Of a stretch of DNA of 64,000 bases, positions 2,005 through 29,200 are shown one piece after another. The notes under the pieces were generated by a model. That model did no database searches. It worked only from the letters and a program-made list of their open reading frames with translations, and was not told the DNA's origin. Source of the DNA: Sandaracinus sp. (GTDB taxonomy: Bacteria > Myxococcota_A > Polyangia > Polyangiales > Houyiibacteriaceae). Position numbers and translations under genes: made by a program. Positions within the stretch are counted from its first letter, which is position 1; the number at the start of each line of letters is the position of its first letter. The stretch lies in NCBI GenBank assembly GCA_020633125.1, contig JACKEH010000009.1, positions 27,680 to 91,679 of the forward strand. The letters run 5' to 3'.

Positions 2005-2092
2005 GCACGCCGTCGTTGACACCCGAAAGCCCAGAGGCTACCTGACCGCGGCCGAGCGCTTCCCGTGGAAGCACCCGGAGAAAGAACGGATC

Positions 2093-3221
2093 ATGCCGGT
2101 TTTCGTTGGTGAGACGCGCGACGTGCTCGCGGACCTCGCCCAGCGCCTTGGTGCGCTGGGGAGGTATCTTTGACGTCGATGGCCTGAGACACGAGGTCGA
2201 TCGACTCACGAACCTTTCCCTCCGCGAAGGCTTCTGGGACCAGCGAGAGCAGGCCGAGAAGCTGATGCGAGAGCGTGCACGCGCCGAAGAGACGGTCCTG
2301 ACGTGGGACCGCTTGTCGAGCGACGTGCAGGGCCTTCTCGAGCTGCTCGAGATGGCCGGGGAAGACGAATCCGAGCTCGCCGAGCTCGTCGAACAAATCC
2401 CGGATCTGGAAAAGGGCGTCCGCCAGCTCGAGCTGCAGCGCATGCTCCTGCCGGACGACGACCAGGACGCGATCCTGTCCGTCAACGCCGGCGCGGGAGG
2501 CACCGACGCCCAGGATTGGGCGGAGATCCTCTTCCGCATGTACCAGCGCTGGGCCGAGAAACACGCGTACAAGGTCGAGGTTCAGGACCTGCAGAAGACC
2601 GAGGTCGGCATCGCCAGCGCCTCGATCCTCGTGAAGGGCCCCAACGCCTACGGCTTCTTGCGTGCGGAGAACGGCGTGCATCGCCTCATCCGCGTGTCGC
2701 GCTTCTCGGGTCGCCGTGAGACGAGCTTCGTCGCCGTGAGCGTCGTGCCGGATCTCGACGACACCGTGAAGGTCGACATGAAGGACTCGGACCTCGAGGT
2801 CAGCGTGATGCGATCCGGCGGCGCCGGTGGTCAGCACGTCAACCGAACGGAGTCCGCGGTGCGCATCGTCCACAAGCCCACCGGCTTCACGGTGCGCTCG
2901 GACAGCGAACGCTCGCAGCACCAGAACCGCGAGCTCGCGATGCAGCGCCTCCGCGGCCTCCTCTACGAGAAGGCCCGACGCGAGCAGGAGCAGGCCTTCG
3001 AAGAGGCCTTCATGAGCGACCAAGGCGAGATCGCCTTCGGGAGCCAGGCGCGCACGTACACCCTTCACCCCTACAAGATGGTGAAGGACGAGCGCACCGA
3101 GCTGAAGGTCGGCAACGCGGACGCGGTCCTCGACGGCGACCTCGACGAGCTCATGGAGAGCTACCTGCTGATGACCGCGGACAAGCGCCGCGAGAAGAAG
3201 CAGGCGGAGAAGAAAGGCTGA
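2093..3221 (+). CDS. prfB: peptide chain release factor 2, expressed through a programmed +1 frameshift (frame 0 is 2093..2170, +1 frame is 2172..3221)
   Basis: Frame 0 runs from ATG 2093 (MPVFVGETRDVLADLAQRLGALGRYL) into an in-frame TGA at 2171-2173. The +1 frame (ORF 2106..3221) continues DVDGLRHEVDRL... It carries SGGAGGQHVNRTESAVRIVHKPTG (GGQ) and ENGVHRLIR. The gene lies directly upstream of lysS, as in many bacteria. Confidence 0.95.
2159..2174 (+). promoter_or_regulatory. RF2 autoregulatory +1 frameshift site (SD-like GGGAGG, then TAT CTT TGA C)
   Basis: The sequence gggagg tat ctt tga c matches the canonical CUU UGA C slippery/stop context, with an internal Shine-Dalgarno-like element 3 nt upstream. 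Confidence 0.9.
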
Positions 3222-3350
3222 GATACGCGGGGGCCCCACGGCCCTCGCGTCTCGTCGTTTCCGGTCGCCGACGCGACCCAACCTCGCCGCGCCGTTCGCG
3301 GTGATCTGGCCGGGAATCGATGCCCGGCTCGGCTGTTCGGAGAAGATTCG

Positions 3351-4972
<1,622 letters not shown>

Positions 4973-4976
<4 letters not shown>

Positions 4977-16030: not shown

Positions 16031-16185
16031 TCGCGTTCGCGCGAACGGATCACGCGTTCGCACGACCCGAGCGGGCCCTCCTCTGGAGCGGCCCGCTTTA
16101 TCGTGGGTGCCAGCGAGACGCCCCCACGAGCCGCCTGGCCCCCGCATCACGGTCCCCTTTCGCGACAGCCTGCTAGAACGTCCGC

Positions 16186-16857
16186 ATGCCGGGCGCGCCG
16201 CTCCTCGAGCTGCATCGCGTGGGGTTTCGGGCCGACGGGCGCGACATCCTCGCCGACGTCTCGCTCACGGTGCACGAAGGCGAGCTGCTCGGCGTGGTGC
16301 TGCAGCACGGCGCTGGCAAGTCGCTGCTCCTGTCGATCGCCGGCGGGCTCGTTCGGCCCACGCACGGCGAGGTCGTGTACCGTGGTCGTCGCATCACCGA
16401 GCTCGCGAGCAGCCCGCCGAAGCTCGGCTTCGTGTTCGAAGACGACGGTGGCCTGCTCGCCAACCTCTCGGTGTACGAGAACGTCGCGCTGCCGCTTCGC
16501 TACCACTTCGGTCTCGAAGGCGACGCGCTCGACGCGAAGGTCCGTGAAGCGCTCGGCCTCGTCGGGCTGGAGGACGCCGCGACCCACATGCCGTGGCAGC
16601 TCACCGGGGACCGACAGCGCCTCGCCGCGCTCGCCCGCGCCATCGCCTACGAGCCGGAGCTGATCTTCGTCGACGACTTCTACGTGAACGCCGACCAGGA
16701 CGCGTTTCGACGGATGCAGGAGTCCGTCGCGATCATGCGCGAAGCCCACGGCACGGCGTTCCTCCTGGCGGTCGACGGCAGCGGTGAATTCGGCATCACG
16801 GATCGGCTCTGCTTGGTCGATCACGGCACGGTGCTGGAGCTCGAACGGCCGGCGTGA
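16186..16857 (+). CDS. ABC-ATPase-like protein with degenerate catalytic motifs (MlaF-like fold)
   Basis: Overall ABC NBD layout, but Walker A is LQHGAGKS and the Q-loop is VFE. The signature is LTGDRQ instead of LSGGQ, and Walker B/D-loop is IFVDDFYVNAD instead of hhhhDEPxxGLD. There is no H-switch His (LLAVDG). Confidence 0.75.
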   Translation: MPGAPLLELHRVGFRADGRDILADVSLTVHEGELLGVVLQHGAGKSLLLSIAGGLVRPTHGEVVYRGRRITELASSPPKLGFVFEDDGGLLANLSVYENVALPLRYHFGLEGDALDAKVREALGLVGLEDAATHMPWQLTGDRQRLAALARAIAYEPELIFVDDFYVNADQDAFRRMQESVAIMREAHGTAFLLAVDGSGEFGITDRLCLVDHGTVLELERPA

Positions 16858-16917: not shown

Positions 16918-19900
16918 GTGCGTCTTTCGCCCGAGGGACTGCTACCCTCGCGCGCCGTGACGCTCGCGATCGACACCCTCGCGGTCCTCGACGAGCTGCC
17001 CGACGGGACCTGCGTCGCCTATCCGGTAGTCGAGCCGCAGCACGTCGCGGTCGGCAGCGAAGGGGACGTCTTGGCCGAGCTTCGGCTCTTCCTGGCGGAC
17101 GAGCTCGCCAGCGCGCCGCCGCACCGCATCGCGCGCTATGCGCTCCCCGAGTCGGCGGCCGCCCAGACGATGGAGATTCGGCTGCCGGAGCTCGAGCTGC
17201 CGGAGCGAATGCGCGCCGACGCCAGCGTGCCGATGACCGCCATCGTCATCCCACACGAGGGCGCGTCTTGGGTGCTGGTGCCGGCGCTCCGTCACGTCGT
17301 CTACGTGTCGAAGGGCGAAGCGCTCGAGTCGACCGCGATTCACGAGATCGAGCGGCACCTCCGCGCGCACGCCCCCAACGCCGCCGAGCGACTCGCGTTG
17401 CTTCCCCCGGCGGACACGCGCGTCGTCCCGCTGCGTCTGCTCGTCGACCGCGAAGGCGAAGCCGCACGGGGGGTCGCGCGTCAGAAGGAGCTCCTCGAAG
17501 CGCGGCGCCGCAAGGAAGCGCTCGCGGTGCTCGAGAGCGTGGGCACGCCGCTTCATGCGCTCCCGGACGGTCCGCCCGTCGTCGGACGCGAGGACGTCGT
17601 GCAGACCATGCACGGCCTGCTCGGCGGACGGGAACGACGCAGCGTCTTGCTCGTCGGCCCCGAACGCGTCGGCAAATCCGACGTGCTTCGCGCGTGGCTG
17701 CGCGGCCCGGGGCGCGGTCGCCGCGCGTTCGCGACGAGCGGCGCGCAGCTGATGGCGGGCATGAGCGGGCTCGGCCAATGGCAGGAGCGCCTGCGGCGCG
17801 TCGTGGCCGCGGCCGAAGAGCTCGACGCGCTCTTGGTCTTCTCGGATCTCACCGACCTCTTCGACCAGACCGGCAAAGGCAACGTCGACCTCCCGGCAGC
17901 GCTCAAGCCGGCGCTCGAAGAGGGCCGCGTGCGGGTGGTCGGCGAGCTCACGGAGGCCGCGGCCGATCGATTGCTCGGGCGGCACGAAGGCTTCTTTCAG
18001 AGCTTCCAGACCGTGCTCGTGCCCACGACCGATCGCAAACATGGACGTCGGCTGCTCGAAGCACGCGCGGCCCATGCGGTCGAGCAAGGGCGCCCCACGG
18101 TCGACGAGGGCGCGCTCGACGCGATGCTCGCGCTCGCCGAGCGCTACCTCGCGTACCGCGTGTTCCCAGGAAAAGCCGCGGAGCTCTTCGACGACGTGGT
18201 CGCCGCGTTCGAGCGGCCGGGCGTCGCGGCCGTCGATCTCGACGTCGTGCGTGCGTCCGACGTCTTTCGGCACTTCGCGACGACCAGCGGCATCCCCGAG
18301 GCGCTCTTGCGCGACGACCGCGCGCTCGAGCCCGATCGGCTTCGTGCGCGCTTCGAAGCGCGCATGGTCGGCCAACACGCCGCGGTCAGTGCCGTCGTCG
18401 ACACGCTCTGCGTGGTGAAGGCCGCGCTCGCGCCCGGCGACAAACCGCTCGCGACGTTCCTCTTCGCAGGGCCGACCGGCGTCGGAAAGACGGAGCTCGC
18501 GCGCGCGTTGGCGGAGATTCTCTACGGCGCCGACGACCGCCTCGTGCGCTTCGACATGAGCGAGTACGCGGACGCGTGGTCGGCGCGACGTCTGGTCGAC
18601 GGTGACGACGGCGGCGACGGCCTGCTCACGCGAAAGGTTCGCGAGCAGCCCTTCTCCGTGATCTTGCTCGACGAGATCGAGAAGGCGCATCCCTCCGTCT
18701 TCGACTTGCTGCTGCAGGTGACCGGCGAGGGACGACTGACCGACGGTCGAGGCCGCACCGCGCACTTCCACAACGCGATCCTGATCCTCACGAGCAACCT
18801 CGGCGCTTCGCACGGCGCACGCACGCTGGGCATCGACGCGCGCGCTTCCGCGGACGATCCGATGGACGCGATTCGAAAGCATTTTCGACCCGAGCTCGTC
18901 GGTCGCCTCGACCGCGTGATTCCTTTCCTCGCGCTCGGGCCCGAAGAGATCGCGCACGTCACGCGGCTCACCGTCGAGCGCGTCGTGCAACGTCGTGGGC
19001 TTCGCGATCGCGGCGTGGCGCTCGAAGTGAGCGAAGACGCGCTTCGGGTGCTGGCGACGGGCGGCTACGACGCCGTGTACGGCGCACGCGCGCTGCGACG
19101 CCACGTCGAGAGCGCGCTCGTCTCGCCGCTGGGCGACCTGCTCTCGTCGGTCGGTCGAGTCGCCGCGGGTAGCACCGTCTTCGTGCGCAGCGAAGACGCA
19201 TCACCGGCCGAGGGCGCACGTTTTCAGCGTGCGTCGCACGGACTGGTGCTCGAGCTCGTCGTGGGCGAGACCAAGGTCGCGCGTGCCGACCTTCGGGGCC
19301 TGGGCGACGCGACCACGTTGCGACGGGACCTCGCGAAGTGGATGGCGACGCCTGCGGTCGAACAGGTCGCCGAGGAAGTTCGCTCGACGCTGGTGCAACT
19401 CGCGATGCCGCGCTCGAAGGCGGAGCTCGCACGGGCCGGCGCCGAGCTCGCGCACCTTCAACGCGAGCTGCACCGCATGGGCAAACCCTGGGAGGAGCTG
19501 CAGCGACGCCAGAACGAGGTGCTCGAGCTCGAAGAGCTCTGCTTCGCGGCGTGGCTCGAAGGGGACACGGACGGAACGCTCGCCTCGTGGGCGGAGGAGC
19601 TTCCGGAGCTCCGTCACCGCGTGCGCATGGCGCTGCTCGCGACCTTGGTCGAGCGCACGCCGCGGCACGCGATCACGGTGCTCTGCGAAGAGCTCGACGA
19701 AGGCCGCTCGCTCGACGGATGGCTCGGGCCGCTGCTCGGCGATCTCGGGCGCCGCGGTTGGAGCGCGACCTTTCATCTTCACAAAGACTCGACCCCTTCG
19801 GGCGAGCCTTGGCCGACCGACCGTTCCTTCGGCCCGCCGCGTGACGCCGACTGGATGAAGGCGTGGCTCGCGCGGCCGGTGCGAGACCGCGCCATCGTGC

Positions 19901-20304
19901 TCGCGCGCATTCGCGGGCCCCACGCGGGGACGCTCGTGACGCTCGAGACCGGGTTGCACCGCTACCTCGGCGTGGCGCCGCGCACGAGCGGTTCGCATCA
20001 CCGCATCACGCTCCTCGCGCTGCGCGACACGATTCGCGAGGGCGAGTGGAAACATGCCGCGCTCCAACCCGGCGCACCTCCCGCACCCGACAAGGCGTTG
20101 AAGCAGCAATGCCGACGTTGGACGGATGAGCGTCCTGGCCAGAAGCTGCCGCCCGACTACATCCCGGTGCCGCTGACGGACTATTGGCTGCCGCACAGCT
20201 ACGACGAGCTTGCGCTTCGCGAGCTGCTCGCCTCGGAAGACCCGGACGTGTTGTTCACGGGCGCCGCGTTCGGCGACGAGGAGGATGAGGAGGACGAGCG
20301 ATGA
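16918..20304 (+). CDS. ClpA/ClpC-like double-AAA+ ATPase, paralogue 1 (novel N-terminal module, decayed D1, intact D2, release-factor-like C-terminal domain)
   Basis: GTG start preceded by AGGAGG. D1: LLVGPERVGKSDV with FSDL at the Walker B position. D2: FLFAGPTGVGKTELARAL, SVILLDEIEKAHPSVFDLLLQV, ILTSNLGA and YGARALRR. About 350 aa lie C-terminal of D2. Confidence 0.85.
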   Translation: MRLSPEGLLPSRAVTLAIDTLAVLDELPDGTCVAYPVVEPQHVAVGSEGDVLAELRLFLADELASAPPHRIARYALPESAAAQTMEIRLPELELPERMRADASVPMTAIVIPHEGASWVLVPALRHVVYVSKGEALESTAIHEIERHLRAHAPNAAERLALLPPADTRVVPLRLLVDREGEAARGVARQKELLEARRRKEALAVLESVGTPLHALPDGPPVVGREDVVQTMHGLLGGRERRSVLLVGPERVGKSDVLRAWLRGPGRGRRAFATSGAQLMAGMSGLGQWQERLRRVVAAAEELDALLVFSDLTDLFDQTGKGNVDLPAALKPALEEGRVRVVGELTEAAADRLLGRHEGFFQSFQTVLVPTTDRKHGRRLLEARAAHAVEQGRPTVDEGALDAMLALAERYLAYRVFPGKAAELFDDVVAAFERPGVAAVDLDVVRASDVFRHFATTSGIPEALLRDDRALEPDRLRARFEARMVGQHAAVSAVVDTLCVVKAALAPGDKPLATFLFAGPTGVGKTELARALAEILYGADDRLVRFDMSEYADAWSARRLVDGDDGGDGLLTRKVREQPFSVILLDEIEKAHPSVFDLLLQVTGEGRLTDGRGRTAHFHNAILILTSNLGASHGARTLGIDARASADDPMDAIRKHFRPELVGRLDRVIPFLALGPEEIAHVTRLTVERVVQRRGLRDRGVALEVSEDALRVLATGGYDAVYGARALRRHVESALVSPLGDLLSSVGRVAAGSTVFVRSEDASPAEGARFQRASHGLVLELVVGETKVARADLRGLGDATTLRRDLAKWMATPAVEQVAEEVRSTLVQLAMPRSKAELARAGAELAHLQRELHRMGKPWEELQRRQNEVLELEELCFAAWLEGDTDGTLASWAEELPELRHRVRMALLATLVERTPRHAITVLCEELDEGRSLDGWLGPLLGDLGRRGWSATFHLHKDSTPSGEPWPTDRSFGPPRDADWMKAWLARPVRDRAIVLARIRGPHAGTLVTLETGLHRYLGVAPRTSGSHHRITLLALRDTIREGEWKHAALQPGAPPAPDKALKQQCRRWTDERPGQKLPPDYIPVPLTDYWLPHSYDELALRELLASEDPDVLFTGAAFGDEEDEEDER

Positions 20305-23300
20305 ACCTGCTCGTGCCGATCTTTCAACGCAAAGCCGCCGGCTACCTGCATTGGACGCCGCTCGCGGTCGGTCTGACGCTCGAGCCCAAACGTTTCGTGA
20401 GCGAGACGAAGCTTCGCGAGCACCTCGGCCGCGACCTCGAGTCCGCGCTCGTGAAGGCGCCCCCGAACGCGGTGACCACGCTCGGTTCCCCACGCAGCGT
20501 CTCTCTCGAACGGGTTCGTCTCGAGCTGAAGCTCGAAGGCTCCCACGGGCGCCGAAAGAAGACGGGCGTGTTCCCCGTGGTGCTCGACGCACGCCGACTC
20601 CCCGACCGACGCCGCCGCGTGCTCGCGTACCACCCGTTGCGGCAGAACGAGGTGATCGTCGTCGACGAAGAGAAGCCGCTCGCCGCACAGATCGGCGCGC
20701 TCTTCGGCCACACCTGGGGCGAGCTCGACGACGAGGCCCTGACCGCGCTCGAGCTGCAGGCGCGCGACGCGCTTCGCACGATCCCGGTGTCGGTTCGCCC
20801 GACCTCGGTGCTCGACCGTGCGGGCAAGAAGGAGAACCTCTTCGACGACCTCCGCACGGAGTCGGAGAAGGCGCGCCGCAAAGGCCGCGGCTCGCTCGCG
20901 GTCTTGCACGAGATCGGCATCGACCTCGGCGCACGTGCGGGTGGGATCGTCGGGGGCAACGAAGGCGCGGCGGCGGGCTTCGACGTCGGCCGTCCTCGCG
21001 AACCGCTTCGCACGCAGCTCCAACAGATGCTGGTGACGCCGAAGAAACGTTCGTTCGTGCTCCTCGGCGCGCCGGGCGCGGGCAAACGCACCGCGTTGCG
21101 ACGAGGGGTGCTCGATCTCGTCGAAGCCGAAGGCTACGCGACGCACCGCGACCTCGAGCGCACCACGCGCGTCTTCTCGATGGCGGGCAGCCGGCTCATC
21201 GCCGGCATGTCGCGGGTCGGCGAGTGGGAGGAGCGCGCGCTCGAGGTGGTGGCGGCGGGTCGCGGTCGTGGGCTCGTGCTCGTGGTCGAGGACCTTCACA
21301 CCTTCGGACGCGTCGGCCGCAGCCGCGACAGCGAGCGCTGCTTGGCGGACGTGTTGCGAGGTCCGGTCGAGCGCGGCGAGCTCGTGCTGACGGGCTCGTG
21401 CACGGCCGCGCAATGGACCCGGCTCGAAGAAGACGCGCCGGGCTTCGCGGCCCTCTTCGCCCGTATCCCGGTGCAAGCGGCCAGCGCGGACGAGACGCTG
21501 CGCATGTTGCTGCACGAGGGCCGCAAGCTCGAAGCCGAGCACACGGTGCATTTCGCGCCGACGGCCTACCGAACGATCCTCGAACAGTCGCAGGCGCTCT
21601 TTCCCGAGCGCGCCCTCCCCGGCAAGGCGCTCGACCTGCTTCGCGCCTTCGACGCGGGGAACGTGAGCAGCCAAGAGGTGCTCGAGCGACTGGTCACCAC
21701 CACGGGTCTGCCGGAAGAGCTCCTCGATCCGAGCGGGACGCTCTCGCTCGACGAGGTCGTCTCGGAGCTCGCGGACGAGGTCGTCGGCCAAGGCGACGCG
21801 GTGCGCAGCGTGGCGGAGCTCGCGCTTCGCATTCGCACCGGCCTCGTCGATCCGCGGCGCCCCTACGGCACGTTCCTCTTCACCGGACCGACGGGCACCG
21901 GCAAGACGCAGCTCGCCAAGACGCTCGCGCGTTACCTCTACGGCGACGACGACCGACTCGTTCGTTTCGACATGGGCGAGCTCTCGGGCCCCGACGCCGT
22001 GCCGCGACTCATCGGCCACCGCGGTCGGCCCCGCGGCATGCTCACCGAAGCGGTCCGTCAGCGGCCCTTCGCCGTGTTGCTCCTCGACGAGATCGAGAAG
22101 GCCCACCCCTCCGTCCTCTACCTGCTCCTGCAGCTCCTCGACGACGGGCGGCTCACCGACGCGGCCGGCGACCGCGTGAGCTTCTCGCATTGCGTCGTCA
22201 TCATGACCTCGAACCTCGGCGCGCGAACGCGTCCCGCGGTGGGCTTCGGCGCGCCGAGCGAGCAGAGCCGCATGGCCGAGGTCACACGCGCGGTGAAGGA
22301 CTTCTTTCCGCCCGAGCTCTTCAACCGCATCGACCGCGTGGTGCCCTTCTCGCCGCTGGACGCCGAGAGCGCACGTTCGATCGCGGTGCGTGAGCTCGAG
22401 GCGTTGCTCGGTCGTCGAGGGCTCACCGACCGCAACGTCTTCGTGCGCCCCCACGCCAGCGCCGTCGACCGTCTGGTCGCCGAAGCCTTCGACGAACGCG
22501 CCGGCGCGCGCAGCGTGCGCCGCTACCTCGAGACGCACGTCGCCTCGTTGCTCGCGGAGCACCTCGCCTCGACGGTGCGTCCGGAGCTCGAGGTGATTCA
22601 GCTCTTCGACCGCGCGGGTCGGTTCACGCTTTCGTCCGATGCGTTGCGCGAAGCCCCGCCGCTCGCGGGTGACTCCGCGCTGCGCCCGCTGCTCGACGTG
22701 TCGATGCAAGCGCTCGTCGAACGGATCCCGGACGCGCTCGCGGCCCTCGACGACGCGGTCGCGTCCGGAGCGCTCGACTCGCTCGGCACGCGGATTCGGG
22801 ACCACCTCGCGCGTGCGTCGGGATCGGTGGCGGACGCCGACGCGCTCTTCGATCTCGAGCGGCTTCGCGGGGAGGTCGAGCGCGCACGCGAGGCGCTCGA
22901 GGCCCTCGCGCATCGTGATCAACTCAGCGCGGAGGCCGAGCTCGAGCTCGCGACCGGTGCCTGGGGAACGCTCGCAGACCGCGACCGCGACGGCGCCAAA
23001 CGGCGCGTGCGCTTGCTCGACCGCCGCATGCTTCGTTCGGCCGCGATTCCCGTCGGAAAACGCGCGCTGCTGCAGTGGCACGCGACGGCGATGCACCTCG
23101 CGCGCGAGCTTCGCTCGGCCGAGCACGACCCGGCGCGTCATCGCGTGCAGGTCGAGCTCTTGCGTGTGGGCGTCGGGCGCGGCGCGAAGGCGCTCGGGCT
23201 CTTCGGCGCGTTGACGCGGCACTACGTCGAGCTCGGCCGCGAGCTCGTGGGACACGCGGCGTTGGTTCGTGGGGAGGTGCGTGAAGGCGACCTCGCCGGC

Positions 23301-23744
23301 CTGCTCGATCTGGGCCCCGAGATGGTGGTGCTCGAGCTCCACGGCATCGGCGTGCGTGGGCTCTTCGAGCGCGACGAGGGGTGCCACGTCTTCTCGCACG
23401 CGGATGGCAGCTCGGAGATCGTGCGCGTGCGTGTGCTCGACGCAGACCTGCCGCCCGACCGTCGCATCGCCACACACCTCGAAGCGCGTCTCGCGCTCGA
23501 AGCCGCGGTGGCCGGAACGGGCGCGCTTCCCGAGGACGCGCGAGGCGACGCACGCGGCCCCGACGCGCTCGCTCCCGTCGTGCGGCGCTACTACGGCGAC
23601 CTCGTCCGAGGTCACGGCGCGAGCACGGCCTTCACGGTCGAGGACCACCGCATGACGCACGTCGAAGCCGCCGAGGTGCGCGCGCTCGAAGAGCTGCTGG
23701 CGCCCTTCACTTGGCTGGCCATGGGCTGGCAGGAGGAGGCGTGA
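20301..23744 (+). CDS. ClpA/ClpC-like double-AAA+ ATPase, paralogue 2 (same architecture as paralogue 1)
   Basis: ATGA overlap with the upstream gene. D1: LLGAPGAGKRTAL with VVEDLH. D2: FLFTGPTGTGKTQLAKTL, AVLLLDEIEKAHPSVLYLLLQL, IMTSNLGA, a VGF loop and AGARSVRR. About 400 aa lie C-terminal of D2. Confidence 0.85.
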   Translation: MNLLVPIFQRKAAGYLHWTPLAVGLTLEPKRFVSETKLREHLGRDLESALVKAPPNAVTTLGSPRSVSLERVRLELKLEGSHGRRKKTGVFPVVLDARRLPDRRRRVLAYHPLRQNEVIVVDEEKPLAAQIGALFGHTWGELDDEALTALELQARDALRTIPVSVRPTSVLDRAGKKENLFDDLRTESEKARRKGRGSLAVLHEIGIDLGARAGGIVGGNEGAAAGFDVGRPREPLRTQLQQMLVTPKKRSFVLLGAPGAGKRTALRRGVLDLVEAEGYATHRDLERTTRVFSMAGSRLIAGMSRVGEWEERALEVVAAGRGRGLVLVVEDLHTFGRVGRSRDSERCLADVLRGPVERGELVLTGSCTAAQWTRLEEDAPGFAALFARIPVQAASADETLRMLLHEGRKLEAEHTVHFAPTAYRTILEQSQALFPERALPGKALDLLRAFDAGNVSSQEVLERLVTTTGLPEELLDPSGTLSLDEVVSELADEVVGQGDAVRSVAELALRIRTGLVDPRRPYGTFLFTGPTGTGKTQLAKTLARYLYGDDDRLVRFDMGELSGPDAVPRLIGHRGRPRGMLTEAVRQRPFAVLLLDEIEKAHPSVLYLLLQLLDDGRLTDAAGDRVSFSHCVVIMTSNLGARTRPAVGFGAPSEQSRMAEVTRAVKDFFPPELFNRIDRVVPFSPLDAESARSIAVRELEALLGRRGLTDRNVFVRPHASAVDRLVAEAFDERAGARSVRRYLETHVASLLAEHLASTVRPELEVIQLFDRAGRFTLSSDALREAPPLAGDSALRPLLDVSMQALVERIPDALAALDDAVASGALDSLGTRIRDHLARASGSVADADALFDLERLRGEVERAREALEALAHRDQLSAEAELELATGAWGTLADRDRDGAKRRVRLLDRRMLRSAAIPVGKRALLQWHATAMHLARELRSAEHDPARHRVQVELLRVGVGRGAKALGLFGALTRHYVELGRELVGHAALVRGEVREGDLAGLLDLGPEMVVLELHGIGVRGLFERDEGCHVFSHADGSSEIVRVRVLDADLPPDRRIATHLEARLALEAAVAGTGALPEDARGDARGPDALAPVVRRYYGDLVRGHGASTAFTVEDHRMTHVEAAEVRALEELLAPFTWLAMGWQEEA

Positions 23745-26014
23745 TGGCGCAGGCCGCACGAAGCTTCCGTGTCTATTTCGTCGCGCACGCCGACGGGAAA
23801 CACACCGGTCTGTTGGTTCGTCGCTATTCGAGCCTCTTCGATGGACCACCCCCGAGCGCCTACGGATCCGACGAAGCGTCGGTGCTGCGGCAGCTCGAGC
23901 TCGACCTGCGCCTCCGCCTCTCGCGAAACCCGGGAGAGCTCGACCGCTACCTGTGGTCGGAGGCGTTCGAGACGCGGACCGTCTCGCTCACCGTCAGCCC
24001 CGCGAGCGTGGTCGACAAGCAGCCCGTCATCGCCAAGCGCGAGATGCCGCTGCGACTCACGTACGCGTGGTGCAAGGCGCAAGATGGCTCGTACCGGGTG
24101 ATGCTGCCGCGCTTCGATTGGTGGCTGATCCTCGAAGACCTGCAGACCGCGAAGGGCGCGCTCGAGCACGCGATCTCCGGCGCGCTCCTCGGCGCCGAGC
24201 CGGCATGGCTCTACGATTTTCGACGGGAAGGCGAGGAGCACGTCGTGGCGTGGGAGCCCGCGCTCTTGCGTGAGGTGAAGGTCAGCGCCGACGCGCCGAA
24301 GGAGACCGACGAGCGGAAGGTGCTCGCGCAGGTCGCCGACGATTGGGTCGGGCGCGCGAGCAAAGGAAAGCTGCCGCGCCCGGTGGGGGAGCCGCGCGTG
24401 AAGTCGTCGTGGCTGCCGGCGATCTCGCAGGACCCGAGCCGTCCGCTTCGTTCCTTGCTCTTCGTCGGTGACTCGGGTGTCGGCAAGACGACCGAGGTGC
24501 GGCACGTCGCGCATGCGCTGCTCGCGCTCGGGCGCGAACGAAAGAACACCCGTTCCCCCGGCCTCTTCGCGACGAGCGCCGAGCGCCTGCTGGCCGGCAT
24601 GATCTACCTCGGCATGTGGCAAGAGCGGGTGCTCGCGCTCGTCGACGAGCTCTCGGGCGACCGCGACTTCCTCTACGTCGACCGGCTGCTGCCCCTGCTC
24701 GCGCCCCAAGCCGACGGCGCGTCGATCGCGAGCTTGCTCGGTGGCCCGATGGCCGAAGGCGAGATCACGCTCGTGGCCGAATGCACGCGCCAAGAGCTCG
24801 CCGAAGCGCGACGCCGCGACGCCGCCTTCGTCGATCATTTCGTGACGATTCCGATGCGCGAGCCGAGCCTCGCGGCGCTCCTGCCCAACCTTCGCGCCTT
24901 CGCCGACCGCGGAAAGAAGTCGCTGCATCCGCGCGCGATTCGGCGCGCGGCCGAGCTGCTCGCGACCTACCGACGAGACCGCAGCTTTCCCGGAAAGGCG
25001 TACCGATTCCTGGAAGCGCTCGAGGCCGACGACGCGACGCCCTCGACCGTGTACGCGCCCGATGTCGAAGCCGCGTTCGCGCGCACGACCGGGTTGCCGC
25101 TGGAGCTCGTGAGCGACGCGACGCCCGCGGGCGTGCAGACCGTGGCGGGCCGTCTTCGCGAAGGCGTGATCGGCCAAGACTCCGCATGCGAAGCGGCCGC
25201 GCGCGCCATCGCGCCCTTCAAGGCGGGTCTCGGCCCACCGGACCGGCCGCTGGCGGTCTTGCTCTTCGCGGGCCCCACCGGAGTCGGCAAGACGGAGCTC
25301 GCGAAGCGCATCGCGGGTTACCTCTTCGGCGACGACAAACGCATGGTCCGCGTCGACATGAGCGAGCTGTCGACGCCCGGCAGCGCGTCGCGCTTGGTGG
25401 CGACGGGGCGCGGCGTGCGAAGCCTCGCCGAGAGCGTTCGACGCGAGCCGCTCGCGGTCGTGCTCTTCGACGAGGTGGAGAAGGCACACCCGGAGGTCTT
25501 CGACCTCTTGCTCGGTGTGCTCGGCGAAGGTCGCATGACCGACGACTCCGGACGTTTCGTCGACTTCCGGATGACCTTCGTGATCATGACGTCGAACCTC
25601 GGCGCGCGAGACCGCGACCCCGTCGGCTTCGACGGCCGCACGAGCGACGCGGACTACCTGCGCGCGGTGCGCGAGGCGTTTCGACCCGAGCTCCTCGGGC
25701 GCATCGACCAGGTCGTTCCCTTTGCCTCCCTTCGACCGGATGCGGTCAGGCGCATCGTCGACTTGCAGCTCGCGGGCATCGCGAAGCGCGAAGGCTTCAC
25801 GCGACGCGGCATCGCGCTTCGGGTCAGCGAAGCGGCGCGTGATCGCCTGGCGGAGCTCGGCTACGAGCCGCGCTACGGCGCGCGTCCGCTCAAGCGCGTG
25901 CTCGAAGGTCGCGTGGTGACGCCGCTCGCGGCGAAGCTGGCGGCCGACCCCGCGCTCCGGCATCGCACGTTGCGGGTCGGCGCCGAGGGCGAGGACGCCG
26001 ACGTTCACGTCTGA
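23744..26014 (+). CDS. ClpA/ClpC-like double-AAA+ ATPase, paralogue 3 (no C-terminal extension)
   Basis: ATG 23744 overlaps the upstream TGA (gTGATG). D1: LLFVGDSGVGKTTEV with YVDRL. D2: LLFAGPTGVGKTELAKRI, AVVLFDEVEKAHPEVFDLLLGV, IMTSNLGA, a VGF loop and YGARPLKR. Confidence 0.85.
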   Translation: MAQAARSFRVYFVAHADGKHTGLLVRRYSSLFDGPPPSAYGSDEASVLRQLELDLRLRLSRNPGELDRYLWSEAFETRTVSLTVSPASVVDKQPVIAKREMPLRLTYAWCKAQDGSYRVMLPRFDWWLILEDLQTAKGALEHAISGALLGAEPAWLYDFRREGEEHVVAWEPALLREVKVSADAPKETDERKVLAQVADDWVGRASKGKLPRPVGEPRVKSSWLPAISQDPSRPLRSLLFVGDSGVGKTTEVRHVAHALLALGRERKNTRSPGLFATSAERLLAGMIYLGMWQERVLALVDELSGDRDFLYVDRLLPLLAPQADGASIASLLGGPMAEGEITLVAECTRQELAEARRRDAAFVDHFVTIPMREPSLAALLPNLRAFADRGKKSLHPRAIRRAAELLATYRRDRSFPGKAYRFLEALEADDATPSTVYAPDVEAAFARTTGLPLELVSDATPAGVQTVAGRLREGVIGQDSACEAAARAIAPFKAGLGPPDRPLAVLLFAGPTGVGKTELAKRIAGYLFGDDKRMVRVDMSELSTPGSASRLVATGRGVRSLAESVRREPLAVVLFDEVEKAHPEVFDLLLGVLGEGRMTDDSGRFVDFRMTFVIMTSNLGARDRDPVGFDGRTSDADYLRAVREAFRPELLGRIDQVVPFASLRPDAVRRIVDLQLAGIAKREGFTRRGIALRVSEAARDRLAELGYEPRYGARPLKRVLEGRVVTPLAAKLAADPALRHRTLRVGAEGEDADVHV

Positions 26015-26200: not shown

Positions 26201-29200
26201 TCACTGCACGCGAAGCGTCTGCTCCGGCGTGCGCGCCACGACCGATCCGCCCGCGTCTTCGAGCTCGGCGGGTGGCAAACGCACCGTGCCCGCCAGACGC
26301 GCCACGAGCGCCAACGTCAGGTCCGCTGCGCCGTCGCCGAGCGCCACGACGAGCTCGTCGTCTTCCATCCAGGCGGCCTCGACGCGTGGATGCGCGCGCA
26401 GGGGCTCCAGCAGCACGTCGATCCCGCTCGGAAGGACTTGGCGCAAGGTGCGCGGCCCTTCGCCGGGTAGCCGCAAGACCGCGTTCGTCGGCGCGCCCAC
26501 GGCGAGCTCGTCGGGCAGACGTCGCGTCATCGCGGCGTTCTCGTCTCGCGTCGCGCGCTCGTCCCACACGAGGTGCGAGAGCTCGACACGGGCCTCCTGC
26601 GGCCCCGACCAACGCACCTTCACGCGATGCGTACCGGGCGCGAGCGCGAGCTCCCGAGCGCGAAGCGCGAGCGCCGCGGCCCACAGGTCCTCGCTCGACA
26701 CTTCGATGCGCTCGACGACCTCGCCGTCCACCTCGACTTCGAGCGTTCCGTCGCCTTCCGGCACCGGCCGAAGGCGCGCGAGTGCCCGCAACGCGTGAGC
26801 CGTTCCGCGTCCGCCGTGCGCGCTATCCCAGCTGTTGCGAGTCGAGAGGAGAAAGCGCGCCGCCGACGGCGCGACACGCTCGAAGCGACGCGGCGCGACG
26901 TCCTCGAGGACCTCCAGCGCGACGTCCACCGCCGCGACGTGCCCGGCCCACGCGTCGAGCCATTGCGGCTCGAAGTGCGTGAGGTTTCGAAGGTCGACCA
27001 GCCGCTCCGCCGCGCGAGCGACGAGGTTTCGGTAGCTCGAGGCATCGAGCGCGTGAAGAAACGCCGTGCAGTGACCGAGCACGCGCGGGTCGGTTCCGGG
27101 TTGCTCGAGCTCGGCGGTGCAGAGCACCCGCCACGCGAGCATCGCCTCGTGCTGATCGCGGCGCGGGCGAACCTTCACGACCGCGTGCGCGGCTTGGGCG
27201 GCCAGCGCGCGACGCTCGAGCTCGCTCTGACCGCGCCACGCCGCCATCGACCGCACGTCGAGGAATCCGTGGTCGTCCGCGGCGGCGAGCACGTAGTCGC
27301 GCGCGGAGAGCACCGCGCTCTCGGGCACCATCGCGCCGATCGCGTTCAAGGCCGAGAGCGCCTCGAGCGCCATCACCGAGACGTAGGGATCGCTGCGCCG
27401 CCCCGCGTCACGGGCAAAGCGGTTTCCGACGCCACCGTCGGCGTTCTGCGCGCTCACGAGCGCGAGCGCGAGCCGATCGAGACGCACGCGCAACGCCGCG
27501 CGCGCACGCTCGTTCAGCTGCCCCGTTTGTTCCAGGTAGCGCCACACCGCCGCGGCGCCGAGCGCGCGATGGGCCGCGCTGGCCGGGCCATCCGTCTCAC
27601 CTTCGAACGCGTCCAAGCCTTGAAGCAAGGGCACGCCGTTCGGCAGCGTCACCTCGAGGCGCACCACCTCGTAGCGCTCGGACGACACCGTGACCTCCGT
27701 CTGCACGTCGCGACCTTCGCGCGAGGTGCCGAAGGCACGACGCACGCTCGGCTCGCCGCGCGGCCGAACACGCACCGCGCGGCGCTCGACGTCGACGAAG
27801 TCGTCGGCCCGCGCGCTCGCCTCGAACGACGCCTCGCCTGCACGACGTGCATGCACCGTGAAGGTCGTCGCGACGGCGCCGTTTGCCGGCAGGTCGAGCG
27901 TCGCGGCCTCGCCTTCGACCGCGAGCGCTTCGCTGCGAAGGTCCAGCCGCGCCCGCACCGGCGTGTCCCCGAGGTTGCGCGCGACGACCGGCACCTCGAC
28001 CACGTCGCCGACGCCGAGCGTGGCGGGCACCTCGGCGCGCACCTGCAGGCGCTGCCGCACTGGGATGGTGGCGCGGGCGGTCGCGATGCCGCCTTCGCGA
28101 TCGGAGGCCACCACGGTGAGCGTCTGTTCGGTCAGCGTGTCGGGCAGCTCGGCATGCAGCCGCAACGTGCCGTTCTCGGCCACGAGCGTCGGCTCCCAGA
28201 GGCTCGTCTCCGCGAAATCCGTTCGAAGGACGATCGTCGTCGGCGCCGCGCGCGGGGTGCTCGGGCGACGTCCTCGAAAGCCTCCTGCACCACGTCCGTA
28301 GCCCGAGCCGGTTCCGCCCCCCGCGCCGTGTCCGATGGTGCCGAGGTTGCCGAGGCCGATGGTCCCTTCGCCCGTGCCTCCACCGCCCATGCCCGTGCCC
28401 GTCAGGCCCAACCCACCGAAGCCGAAGTTTTCGCCGATCGAATCGCCCATGAGCGCACCGAGCGCTCCCATCGGGTCGTTGCCGAGCGCGGTGCCGCTTC
28501 CGTAGCCACCGCCTCGACGCCGCGGCGGCGGCGGTCGACGGCCGTCGTGGTAGCCGAAGTTCGGCGGCCATCCGATGTCGTAGCGCTCGACGCCCCACGT
28601 GCGCGCGACCACCGGCCACGTGAGGGTCTGCGCACCGGTGCTCGCCAGCACCTTTCGCTCCGCGTTGTAGAAACGATCCCGCGGCGCGCGCTCGAGCGGA
28701 TCGAGCAACGCGAGCACCGCGGAGTCGACCACGCTGGCACCGACGAGCGCTTCGCGTGCTTGCCCGTCGCGGACGACACGAACCTCCGCGTCGATTCGCT
28801 CGCCCGGCGCAGCGGATTCGGGCAACCCGCCGAGCGTCACTTCGAGGCGCTGGCCCGGTTGCACCACGAGGTTCTGTCCGTCCGTGAGCAATCCGACGTC
28901 GGCCCCGCGCCGCCCCACCGTGAAGAGCGTGAGCAACATCGAGCCCCAGCTCGTCGCGTTCACGGTCGCACGCGCCAGAGGTTCGTCCCCGCCGCGTTCG
29001 ACCGGCACGAGGAACGAGTCGACGATCGCGCCCGAGCTGTCGACCACGTCTGCGTGCACGACCTCTTCGTTCGGCACGACGTCGCGGGGGAAACGCACCA
29101 ACACTTCGAAGGGTTCGCCCTCCGCGATCACGGTGTGCTCGACGGACGAGCGCATCGGAAGCACGGCTCCTCGCGGCAGGTTCGCGCGCGCGACGTCCTC

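Follow-up and report, generated by a model that had tools for sequence, protein, structure and literature searches.

A co-encoded trio of Clp/Hsp100-type AAA+ paralogues from Sandaracinus with shortened D2 pore loops and a predicted pore-poor channel

In Clp/Hsp100 motors, the tyrosines of the pore-1 loops are regarded as the parts that do the work. What can such a motor still do when the loop that bears the tyrosine of its second AAA+ module (D2) has been cut short? The question is raised by three neighbouring genes, designated P1, P2 and P3, on a stretch of 64,000 nucleotides from Sandaracinus sp. (assembly GCA_020633125.1, contig JACKEH010000009.1, forward-strand positions 27,680 to 91,679), hereafter called the window, whose own numbering is used throughout. 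All three genes, and every feature of them described below, lie on the plus strand: P1 (16918..20304) encodes 1128 amino acids, P2 (20301..23744) encodes 1147 and P3 (23744..26014) encodes 756. P1 comprises an N-terminal domain (approximately residues 1–215), a degenerate first AAA+ module (D1), a predicted active D2 and a release-factor-like C-terminal domain (approximately residues 761–1128). P2 has the same architecture, and P3 consists of an N-domain, a degenerate D1 and a predicted active D2 without the C-terminal extension. An initial annotation of this DNA had proposed that all three proteins lack the pore tyrosine of the D2 GYVG loop and had argued on that basis against a classical unfoldase mechanism. 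In this study, we find that the canonical GYVG is indeed gone from the D2 modules of the trio, that their ATPase sites are preserved and that the predicted machine is pore-poor, not pore-less.

The peptides on which the proposal was founded are correct to the letter and occupy positions 18553-18639 in P1, 21969-22055 in P2 and 25355-25438 in P3, for which 18553-18630, 21966-22050 and 25353-25440 had been given. They were aligned with solved ClpB and BAP (a ClpB bearing the ClpP-binding loop of ClpA) and with S. aureus ClpC using phmmer, and with the ClpB-like protein of the same genome using MAFFT. In the phmmer alignments a gap of 5-6 residues falls precisely on GYVGYE or GYVGHD in all three proteins and MAFFT places the same gap, in agreement with the shorter D2 segments noticed earlier. 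The short loop of P1, DGDDGGDG (residues 561-568; 18598..18621), is acidic, contains no aromatic residue and leaves a 5-residue gap against GYVGYE of ClpB (alignment row RLVDGDDG.....GDGLLT). That of P2, GHRGRPRG (residues 572-579; 22014..22037), lies opposite GYVGHD of ClpC (RLIG....HRGRP.RGMLT) and has Gly575 where its orthologues have Trp, Phe or Tyr. The loop of P3, ATGRGVRS (residues 553-560; 25400..25423), is likewise devoid of aromatic residues and leaves a 6-residue gap against ClpB (RLVATGRGVRS......LAE). As an internal control, ClpX of the same genome has GYVG. The further statement that the segments hold no aromatic residue is true of the loops themselves but not of the whole P1 string, in which Y550 and W554 (DMSEYADAW) belong to the helix ahead of the loop, at a site occupied by Phe in ClpB.

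Conservation was assessed in 120 orthologues of each paralogue (360 in total), aligned together with the window protein and the ClpB-like protein of the genome. The D2 loop is shortened in 360/360 orthologues, which rules out an assembly error as the cause. In a tree of the D1-D2 cores the three orthogroups are each monophyletic (support 1.0, 1.0 and 0.975), with P2 and P3 as sisters, and the loop shortening is therefore most simply explained by one event preceding the triplication. An aromatic residue is found in the D2 loop of none of the 120 P1 orthologues (the 16 Phe that were counted belong to RL[IV] in the helix before the loop), and in P3 orthologues Trp is the sole aromatic type and occurs in 3/120. 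The P2 orthologues have an aromatic residue at one fixed column in 111 of 120 cases (W 66, F 26, Y 19), within the motif GD[RA][WFY]xP[ER]G; Gly occupies this column in 4 orthologues, including the P2 of the window. The proposed absence of a D2 pore aromatic therefore describes the trio of the window well and generalizes poorly. Both losses in this P2, the D2 form GHRGRPRG and the D1 form SRVG, are common to its two nearest relatives (P0245 and P0246, approximately 76% identity), which marks it as an atypical member; the loss is fixed in a small clade and does not stem from a sequencing error. A separate observation concerns charge: the D2 loop of the window is strongly acidic in P1 and basic in P2, and P1 orthologues share the acidic tendency (R-G-T-[DE]-R-x-[ED]-G), a pattern that would be unusual for a polypeptide pore if both loops face the channel.

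The D1 loops were also said to be altered at the KYRG position, and the strings quoted for this (SGLGQW, SRVGEW and IYLGMW) are correct. The description fits P1 and P2 but fails for P3, whose D1 loop IYLG (24602..24613) places Tyr288 on the Tyr of ClpB KYRG and retains the aromatic-hydrophobic-Gly pattern. This position is Tyr in 118/120 P3 orthologues and aromatic in 120/120, in the form Y[LVI]G. P1 has Gly at the Tyr position (SGLG, 17764..17775), as do 110/120 of its orthologues. P2 has Arg (SRVG, 21210..21221), and its orthologues have Y in 65, F in 7, H in 33 and R in 15 of 120, giving Tyr or Phe in 72/120 (60%).

The ATPase sites of the two modules have fared differently. D1 of all three proteins has neither the Walker B catalytic Glu nor either Arg finger. 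Walker B reads LLVFSD in P1 (17830..17847; Ser-Asp against Asp-Glu in ClpB, with Asp-Asp as the orthologue consensus), VLVVED in P2 (21276..21293; Glu-Asp, with the order swapped) and FLYVDR in P3 (24668..24685; Asp-Arg, with Arg replacing the catalytic Glu). The Arg-finger pair of ClpB/ClpC (ERRF) is replaced by QS in P1 (Gln-Ser at 17998-18003 in the alignment to ClpB), AL in P2 and DH in P3. The D1 P-loop GxxxxGK[ST] is retained except in P2 of the window, in which GAPGAGKR (21066-21089) has Arg in place of the Mg-coordinating Ser/Thr; this change is common to P0245-P0248, the wider consensus being GPPGCGKT. Given the established roles of the missing Walker B and Arg-finger residues, D1 probably binds nucleotide without hydrolysing it. 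D2 retains Walker A (GPTG[VT]GKT), Walker B with its Asp-Glu pair (LLDE), sensor-1 (TSN), the Arg finger (...E[LF]xxR[IL]D) and sensor-2 (GAR), at approximately 90-100% consensus across the 360 orthologues, and the intact ATPase site that had been claimed is thus borne out in this module.

A tripeptide resembling the ClpP-docking type is predicted in each protein. It is LGI in P1 (18826..18834) and VGF in P3 (25622..25630), both at the position of ClpA IGL (TLGIDA and PVGFDG, respectively, on SIGLIH of the ClpA loop in BAP), and VGF in P2 (22239..22247), at the ClpC AGF or ClpA IGL position (AVGFGA on FAGFGG of S. aureus ClpC). The pattern [LIVMA]G[FLMIY] occupies the docking column in 102/120 P1, 115/120 P2 and 102/120 P3 orthologues, and the tripeptide ([VIA]-G-[FIL]) forms a conserved island inside an otherwise variable loop. 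Its preservation in all three subunits argues that the channel still passes something.

By their AAA_2 (E 1e-40 to 8e-43) and ClpB_D2-small modules, the latter above its Pfam cut-off in P1, P2 and P3, the three proteins are classed as Clp/Hsp100-type; their D1 can be aligned with that of ClpB/ClpC, which gives them the two tandem AAA+ modules of class I. The top PDB match is BAP for P1 and P3 and S. aureus ClpC for P2. No curated family is reached. The NCBIfam models for ClpA, ClpB, ClpK, ClpG and ClpV score 289-337 bits, far below their equivalog cut-offs (885-1900), and the Pfam Torsin model scores 17.7 bits against a cut-off of 27, a Torsin assignment being also at odds with the two modules and with an Arg finger of D2's own. 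The ClpA model covers D1 and D2 of the trio in a single stretch, which indicates that there is no middle domain, and the middle domain (approximately 120 columns) of the ClpB-like protein of the genome has no counterpart in the trio in the MAFFT alignment. Clp_N gave no Pfam match in P1, P2 or P3. The trio thus departs in several respects from what defines ClpA, ClpB and ClpC: it has no GYVG, no catalytically competent D1, no Clp_N and no middle domain, and its scores fall short of the equivalog level. The sole ClpB-like gene found in the genome (L001, G000:C48:102002-105487, open reading frame 4-2292) has a middle domain and is itself atypical: its D1 has the pore loop SLRG without Tyr and a Walker B LFLPDL with Pro-Asp replacing Asp-Glu, and its D2 has GYKD in place of GYVG. 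A canonical ClpB of this genome may simply be unassembled, as the genome bin to which the contig of the trio (C114) belongs is 57% complete.

Do the three proteins work together? The P1 stop and P2 start codons overlap as ATGA at 20301-20304, those of P2 and P3 overlap as TGATG, and GGAGGAGG precedes the P3 ATG at 23744; the genes are consecutive and, as read from these junctions, translationally coupled. Sandaracinus amylolyticus and Archangium gephyra have the same P1-P2-P3 order and overlapping genes amid unrelated flanks. Among 12 further Myxococcota genomes, fetched through the P3 N-domain, P1-P2-P3 is complete in 10, the two exceptions being a locus cut at the contig end after P2-P3 (L027) and a fragment with P3 alone (L025). 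In Sorangium cellulosum (L015, 10001-18517) a gene of 318 amino acids lies between P1 and P2, and P3 is not adjacent. A protein record from a Polyangiales metagenome bin (P0257, 1927 amino acids) joins P2 to P3, with four Walker A motifs, a P2-type D2 loop (GDRW) and a P3-type D1 loop (IYVG), and may represent either a genuine fusion or a stop codon that was overlooked. Two other long open frames (2081 amino acids in G275 and 1502 in G150) were rejected as fusions, being overlapping high-GC frames with two Walker A motifs. At one locus (L034, G175:C119) a D2 module follows directly after the P1 C-domain, as though P2 lacked its N-domain and D1. Judged by the P3 N-domain, which 13 of 301 genomes carry in an even sample of Myxococcota, the module is accessory, and the named proteins most closely related to the trio are all from Myxococcota. 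From the coupled genes, the fixed order, the fusion record and the complementary retention of pore-loop residues among the subunits, we infer that P1, P2 and P3 probably form one ClpA/ClpC-derived double-ring AAA+ machine, a hetero-hexamer.

The C-terminal domain of P1 and P2 offers a hint of where such a machine may act. The P1 domain (residues 761-1128; 19198..20301) was modelled by AlphaFold2 with a predicted local distance difference test score (pLDDT) of 92.5. In a Foldseek search of the PDB, the top 39 matches of the model are all RF2, RF1 or mtRF1 (E down to 5.4e-6, probability 0.75-1.00, mostly at least 0.9), with TM-scores that, at 0.2-0.3, are low, in keeping with the flexibility of a multi-domain match. 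Aligned with the RF2 encoded in the window itself, the domain scores 62.7% in hhalign against 0.5% for unrelated controls; GPHAGTLVTLETGLHR is paired with GPNAYGFLRAENGVHR, so that the signature GPxAxxLxxExGxHR is common to both. The P1 and P2 C-domains are homologous (hhalign 96.7%), and the P1 domain, as modelled, has the release-factor fold, consisting of the domain 1 helices and the decoding superdomain. Pfam PCRF and RF-1 gave no match at E<=0.01 in the C-domain of P1 or P2, and the P1 domain has neither GGQ nor SPF, the positions aligned with those of RF2 reading ...HRYLGVAPRTSG... and ...LQPGAPPAPDK.... The N-domain of P3 (215 amino acids; 23744..24388) is predicted to be mixed alpha/beta (AlphaFold2 pLDDT 89.6, predicted TM-score 0.78, 82 sequences), and its model found no fold match at E<=0.001 in the PDB or the viral BFVD. 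The P1 N-domain is weakly homologous to those of P2 and P3 (hhalign 82% and 66%, respectively), the direct P2-P3 comparison not being significant (4.5%). An exhaustive search of 1.84 billion representatives returned 94 proteins with the P3 N-domain, which is always N-terminal, and the full-length matches have approximately 750-800 amino acids.

The reading that we favour, at a likelihood slightly short of even, is that the trio are subunits of a hetero-oligomeric, low-grip derivative of ClpA/ClpC whose special client may sit at the ribosome. In such a machine the D1 tier would be a nucleotide-bound, catalytically dead scaffold and the D2 tier the motor. Most simply, the D2 GYVG loop was shortened once, ahead of the gene triplication, and aromatics were then retained subunit by subunit: always as the D1 Tyr in P3, usually at the D2 tip and often as the D1 Tyr in P2, and not at all in P1. 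In the lineage of the window P2 has lost both, leaving the D1 Tyr of P3 as the sole remainder. The D1 tier would hold the polypeptide through the P3 Tyr, joined in most relatives by that of P2, and the D2 tier would work with aromatics from P2 subunits at most and with none in the window. Besides assembly we infer use of the channel, ClpP docking and ribosome targeting: the channel would operate with a weak grip, holding or feeding an extended client without forcibly unfolding folded domains; ClpP may receive the client, a peptidase hand-over that the conserved tripeptide would fit; and the release-factor-like arms of P1 and P2 suggest a client that is ribosomal and already unfolded.

Engineered motors bear on whether this is feasible. 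ClpA without any wild-type D2 GYVG loops still degrades an unfolded substrate, and ClpX with three wild-type pore loops, half of the full set, is strongly impaired (PMC8666677). Loss of GYVG alone therefore leaves threading possible, as the ClpA loop variants indicate, and the two sets of mutants together imply that a pore-poor ring can translocate extended chains and is weak as an unfoldase. The earlier argument against a classical unfoldase accordingly holds in one respect and overreaches in another. A high-grip processive unfoldase is unlikely because the active ring in the lineage of the window has no pore-1 aromatic at all; the proteins are nevertheless not devoid of translocation loops, as P3 has Tyr-Leu-Gly in D1 and P2 orthologues have an aromatic residue in D2 in 93% and Tyr or Phe in D1 in 60%.

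Several observations weigh against a low-grip, threading hetero-oligomer. The active D2 ring of the window is entirely without an aromatic residue, and the D1 ring that makes up for lost D2 loops in ClpA is an active ATPase; since D1 of the trio appears dead, its Tyr could grip but not pull. The W-x-P of the P2 loop motif departs from the aromatic-hydrophobic-Gly pattern. The C-domain of 370 amino acids on two of the three subunits might obstruct the face on which ClpP docks. No clpP adjoins the trio at any locus examined (the window, Sandaracinus, Archangium and Sorangium), and the clpP-clpX pair of the same genome sits on a different contig. Lastly, a single metagenome bin supplied the only fusion protein, for which an artefact of assembly or gene calling may be responsible.

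The most serious competitor is a machine that does not thread. Hydrolysis in D2 would then perform rigid-body work on a bound partner; the release-factor-like arms might, for example, pry or displace something on the ribosome, while the channel would be unused and the Tyr and VGF elements would have structural or docking roles unconnected with translocation. The deletion of GYVG in all three proteins, the aromatic-free active ring of the window and the dead D1 all suit this idea, as does the fate of P2: its aromatic has been lost in the lineage of the window and the genes remain intact across at least three clusters at approximately 76% identity, so that the residue is dispensable there. Torsins are a precedent, being Clp-D2-like ATPases without pore loops that have been judged unlikely to thread (PMC4999309); D2 of the trio differs from them, however, in having its own Arg finger. 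A further parallel may lie in the release-factor module without GGQ, which recalls Pelota. Pelota works with a non-threading ATPase. An idle channel is nevertheless difficult to reconcile with a Tyr-hydrophobic-Gly in P3 D1 that is near-invariant (118/120), with the D2 aromatic in 93% of P2 orthologues and with a ClpP-type tripeptide conserved in all three orthogroups, and we consider a non-threading remodeller unlikely, though by no means negligible.

Co-assembly itself could also be mistaken. Bacterial Clp/Hsp100 proteins are mostly homo-hexamers, and P1, P2 and P3 might follow this usual state as separate rings that share an operon and have different jobs, for example engagement by a Tyr-bearing P3 ring, with the P1 and P2 rings tethered through their release-factor-like domains. 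The interrupted P1/P2 pair of Sorangium, with P3 elsewhere, and the L025 fragment, in which P3 has no such neighbours, would agree with independent rings. Overlapping start and stop codons, a gene order constant in 10/12 further genomes, the complementarity of pore-loop residue loss between subunits and the P2-P3 fusion record would not, and separate homo-hexamers appear to us rather improbable. Far less probable still is that the genes are decaying clpA/clpC duplicates in which the loop was lost under relaxed selection. The patchy distribution (13/301 genomes) and the additional degeneracy of P2 in the window (GKR in the D1 Walker A and both aromatics lost) could be taken in that sense, but conservation largely refutes it: the frames are intact at 756-1147 amino acids with a high G+C content at third codon positions (GC3), the D2 motifs are 90-100% conserved over 360 orthologues, the orthogroups have kept length and architecture at 40-50% identity, and the alignments of both the N- and the C-domains yield high-confidence models.

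A more specific version of the low-grip machine concerns the ribosome. The trio might be a bacterial ribosome-directed device, namely a pore-poor Clp-type hetero-hexamer to which an A-site probe of release-factor origin, with neither GGQ nor decoding motifs, has been fused. Stalled ribosomes would be its target, with splitting by Pelota-ABCE1 or extraction by Vms1-Cdc48 as the analogous process. The nascent chain, already unfolded, might then reach ClpP by way of the VGF loops; a client of this kind, if true, would explain why high-grip GYVG loops are dispensable. We hold this version to be doubtful. Full-text literature searches found no paper on the trio or on a Clp/release-factor fusion, and a survey of release-factor evolution mentions AAA+ proteins only for Vms1-Cdc48 (PMC6514570).

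The surroundings of the trio were also inspected. The G+C content across the window is 66-74%, and the window contains envelope genes of the Gram-negative type (BamA, an MlaC-like gene and FtsX/MacB-type ABC transporter genes). An ABC-type ATPase gene (Pfam ABC_tran; 16177-16857) ends 60 nucleotides upstream of P1; it was rejected as a member of the module, as it is not found beside the trio in Sandaracinus, Archangium or Sorangium. A role in anti-phage defence was likewise rejected: PADLOC returned generic AAA_2-level matches to DolB, PDC-M37B and mad8, with no system-specific partner genes. The RF2 gene of the window (prfB, 2046-3221, followed by lysS, 3222-4976) has a variant motif of its own, GVHRLIRVSRFSGRRETSF against the canonical RF2 SPFD(A/S)NxRRHT(S/A)F, which has SRF for SPF and Glu for His and is shorter by two residues. 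Among 24 relatives S[RK]FSGRRET occurs in 9 (the window included) and the canonical form in 15, mostly as SPF and twice as SPY. A link between this variant and the trio was not adopted; the trio is present in 7/9 S[RK]F genomes against 1/4 SPF genomes tested in the same family, but these are close kin and allow no conclusion.

The nearest known systems are ClpA and ClpC, which, like the trio, have two AAA+ modules, an AAA_2-type D2 with a ClpB_D2-small lid and a hydrophobic-Gly-hydrophobic tripeptide; D1 and D2 of ClpA can moreover be aligned with those of the trio without a middle domain. The trio departs from them in having an N-domain of approximately 215 amino acids without a fold match instead of Clp_N, a D2 loop shorter by 5-6 residues, a D1 without the catalytic Glu or Arg fingers, NCBIfam scores of 289-337 bits where the equivalog cut-offs are 993-1232, and three co-encoded paralogues, two of them with a release-factor-like C-domain, in place of one gene. 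Torsins are related to Clp D2, lack the pore-loop consensus and are considered unlikely to thread polypeptide (PMC4999309), and it is in the missing consensus alone that the trio resembles them. Torsins have a single AAA+ module and borrow an Arg finger from LAP1/LULL1, whereas the trio has two modules, a D2 with its own Arg finger and all catalytic motifs, and one subunit, P3, with a D1 Tyr loop. Pex1 and Pex6, like other heteromeric double-ring AAA+ ATPases, are co-assembling paralogues that pair a catalytically inactive D1 with an active D2, and both retain their D2 pore-loop aromatics. They share with the trio only this logic of a heteromer with a dead D1 and a live D2, hetero-assembly of the trio being predicted, and they belong to the classical AAA clade whereas the trio is of the Clp/HCLR type. 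The class-I release factors RF1 and RF2 have the fold (RF2/RF1/mtRF1) and the GPxAxxLxxExGxHR signature of the P1/P2 C-domain; the latter differs in lacking GGQ and SPF/PxT and in being fused behind an AAA+ motor, and the release-factor-like arms may indicate an undescribed link between a Clp-type motor and the bacterial ribosome. Engineered ClpA and ClpX, like the trio, have the pore-1 Tyr in some subunits or in one tier only. Those are laboratory point mutants with active ATPase tiers, whereas the trio combines a natural, conserved loop deletion with a D1 that is predicted to be dead. The trio can be seen as a natural version of this engineering, in which aromatics are restricted to certain subunits and tiers, D2 is live where D1 is dead, and a putative ClpP-type docking motif is retained. 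If the subunits do co-assemble, they would constitute a defined, evolutionarily tuned test of the number of gripping loops that a translocase requires and of the ring in which these must lie, one that cultured hosts such as Sandaracinus amylolyticus and Archangium gephyra make open to experiment.

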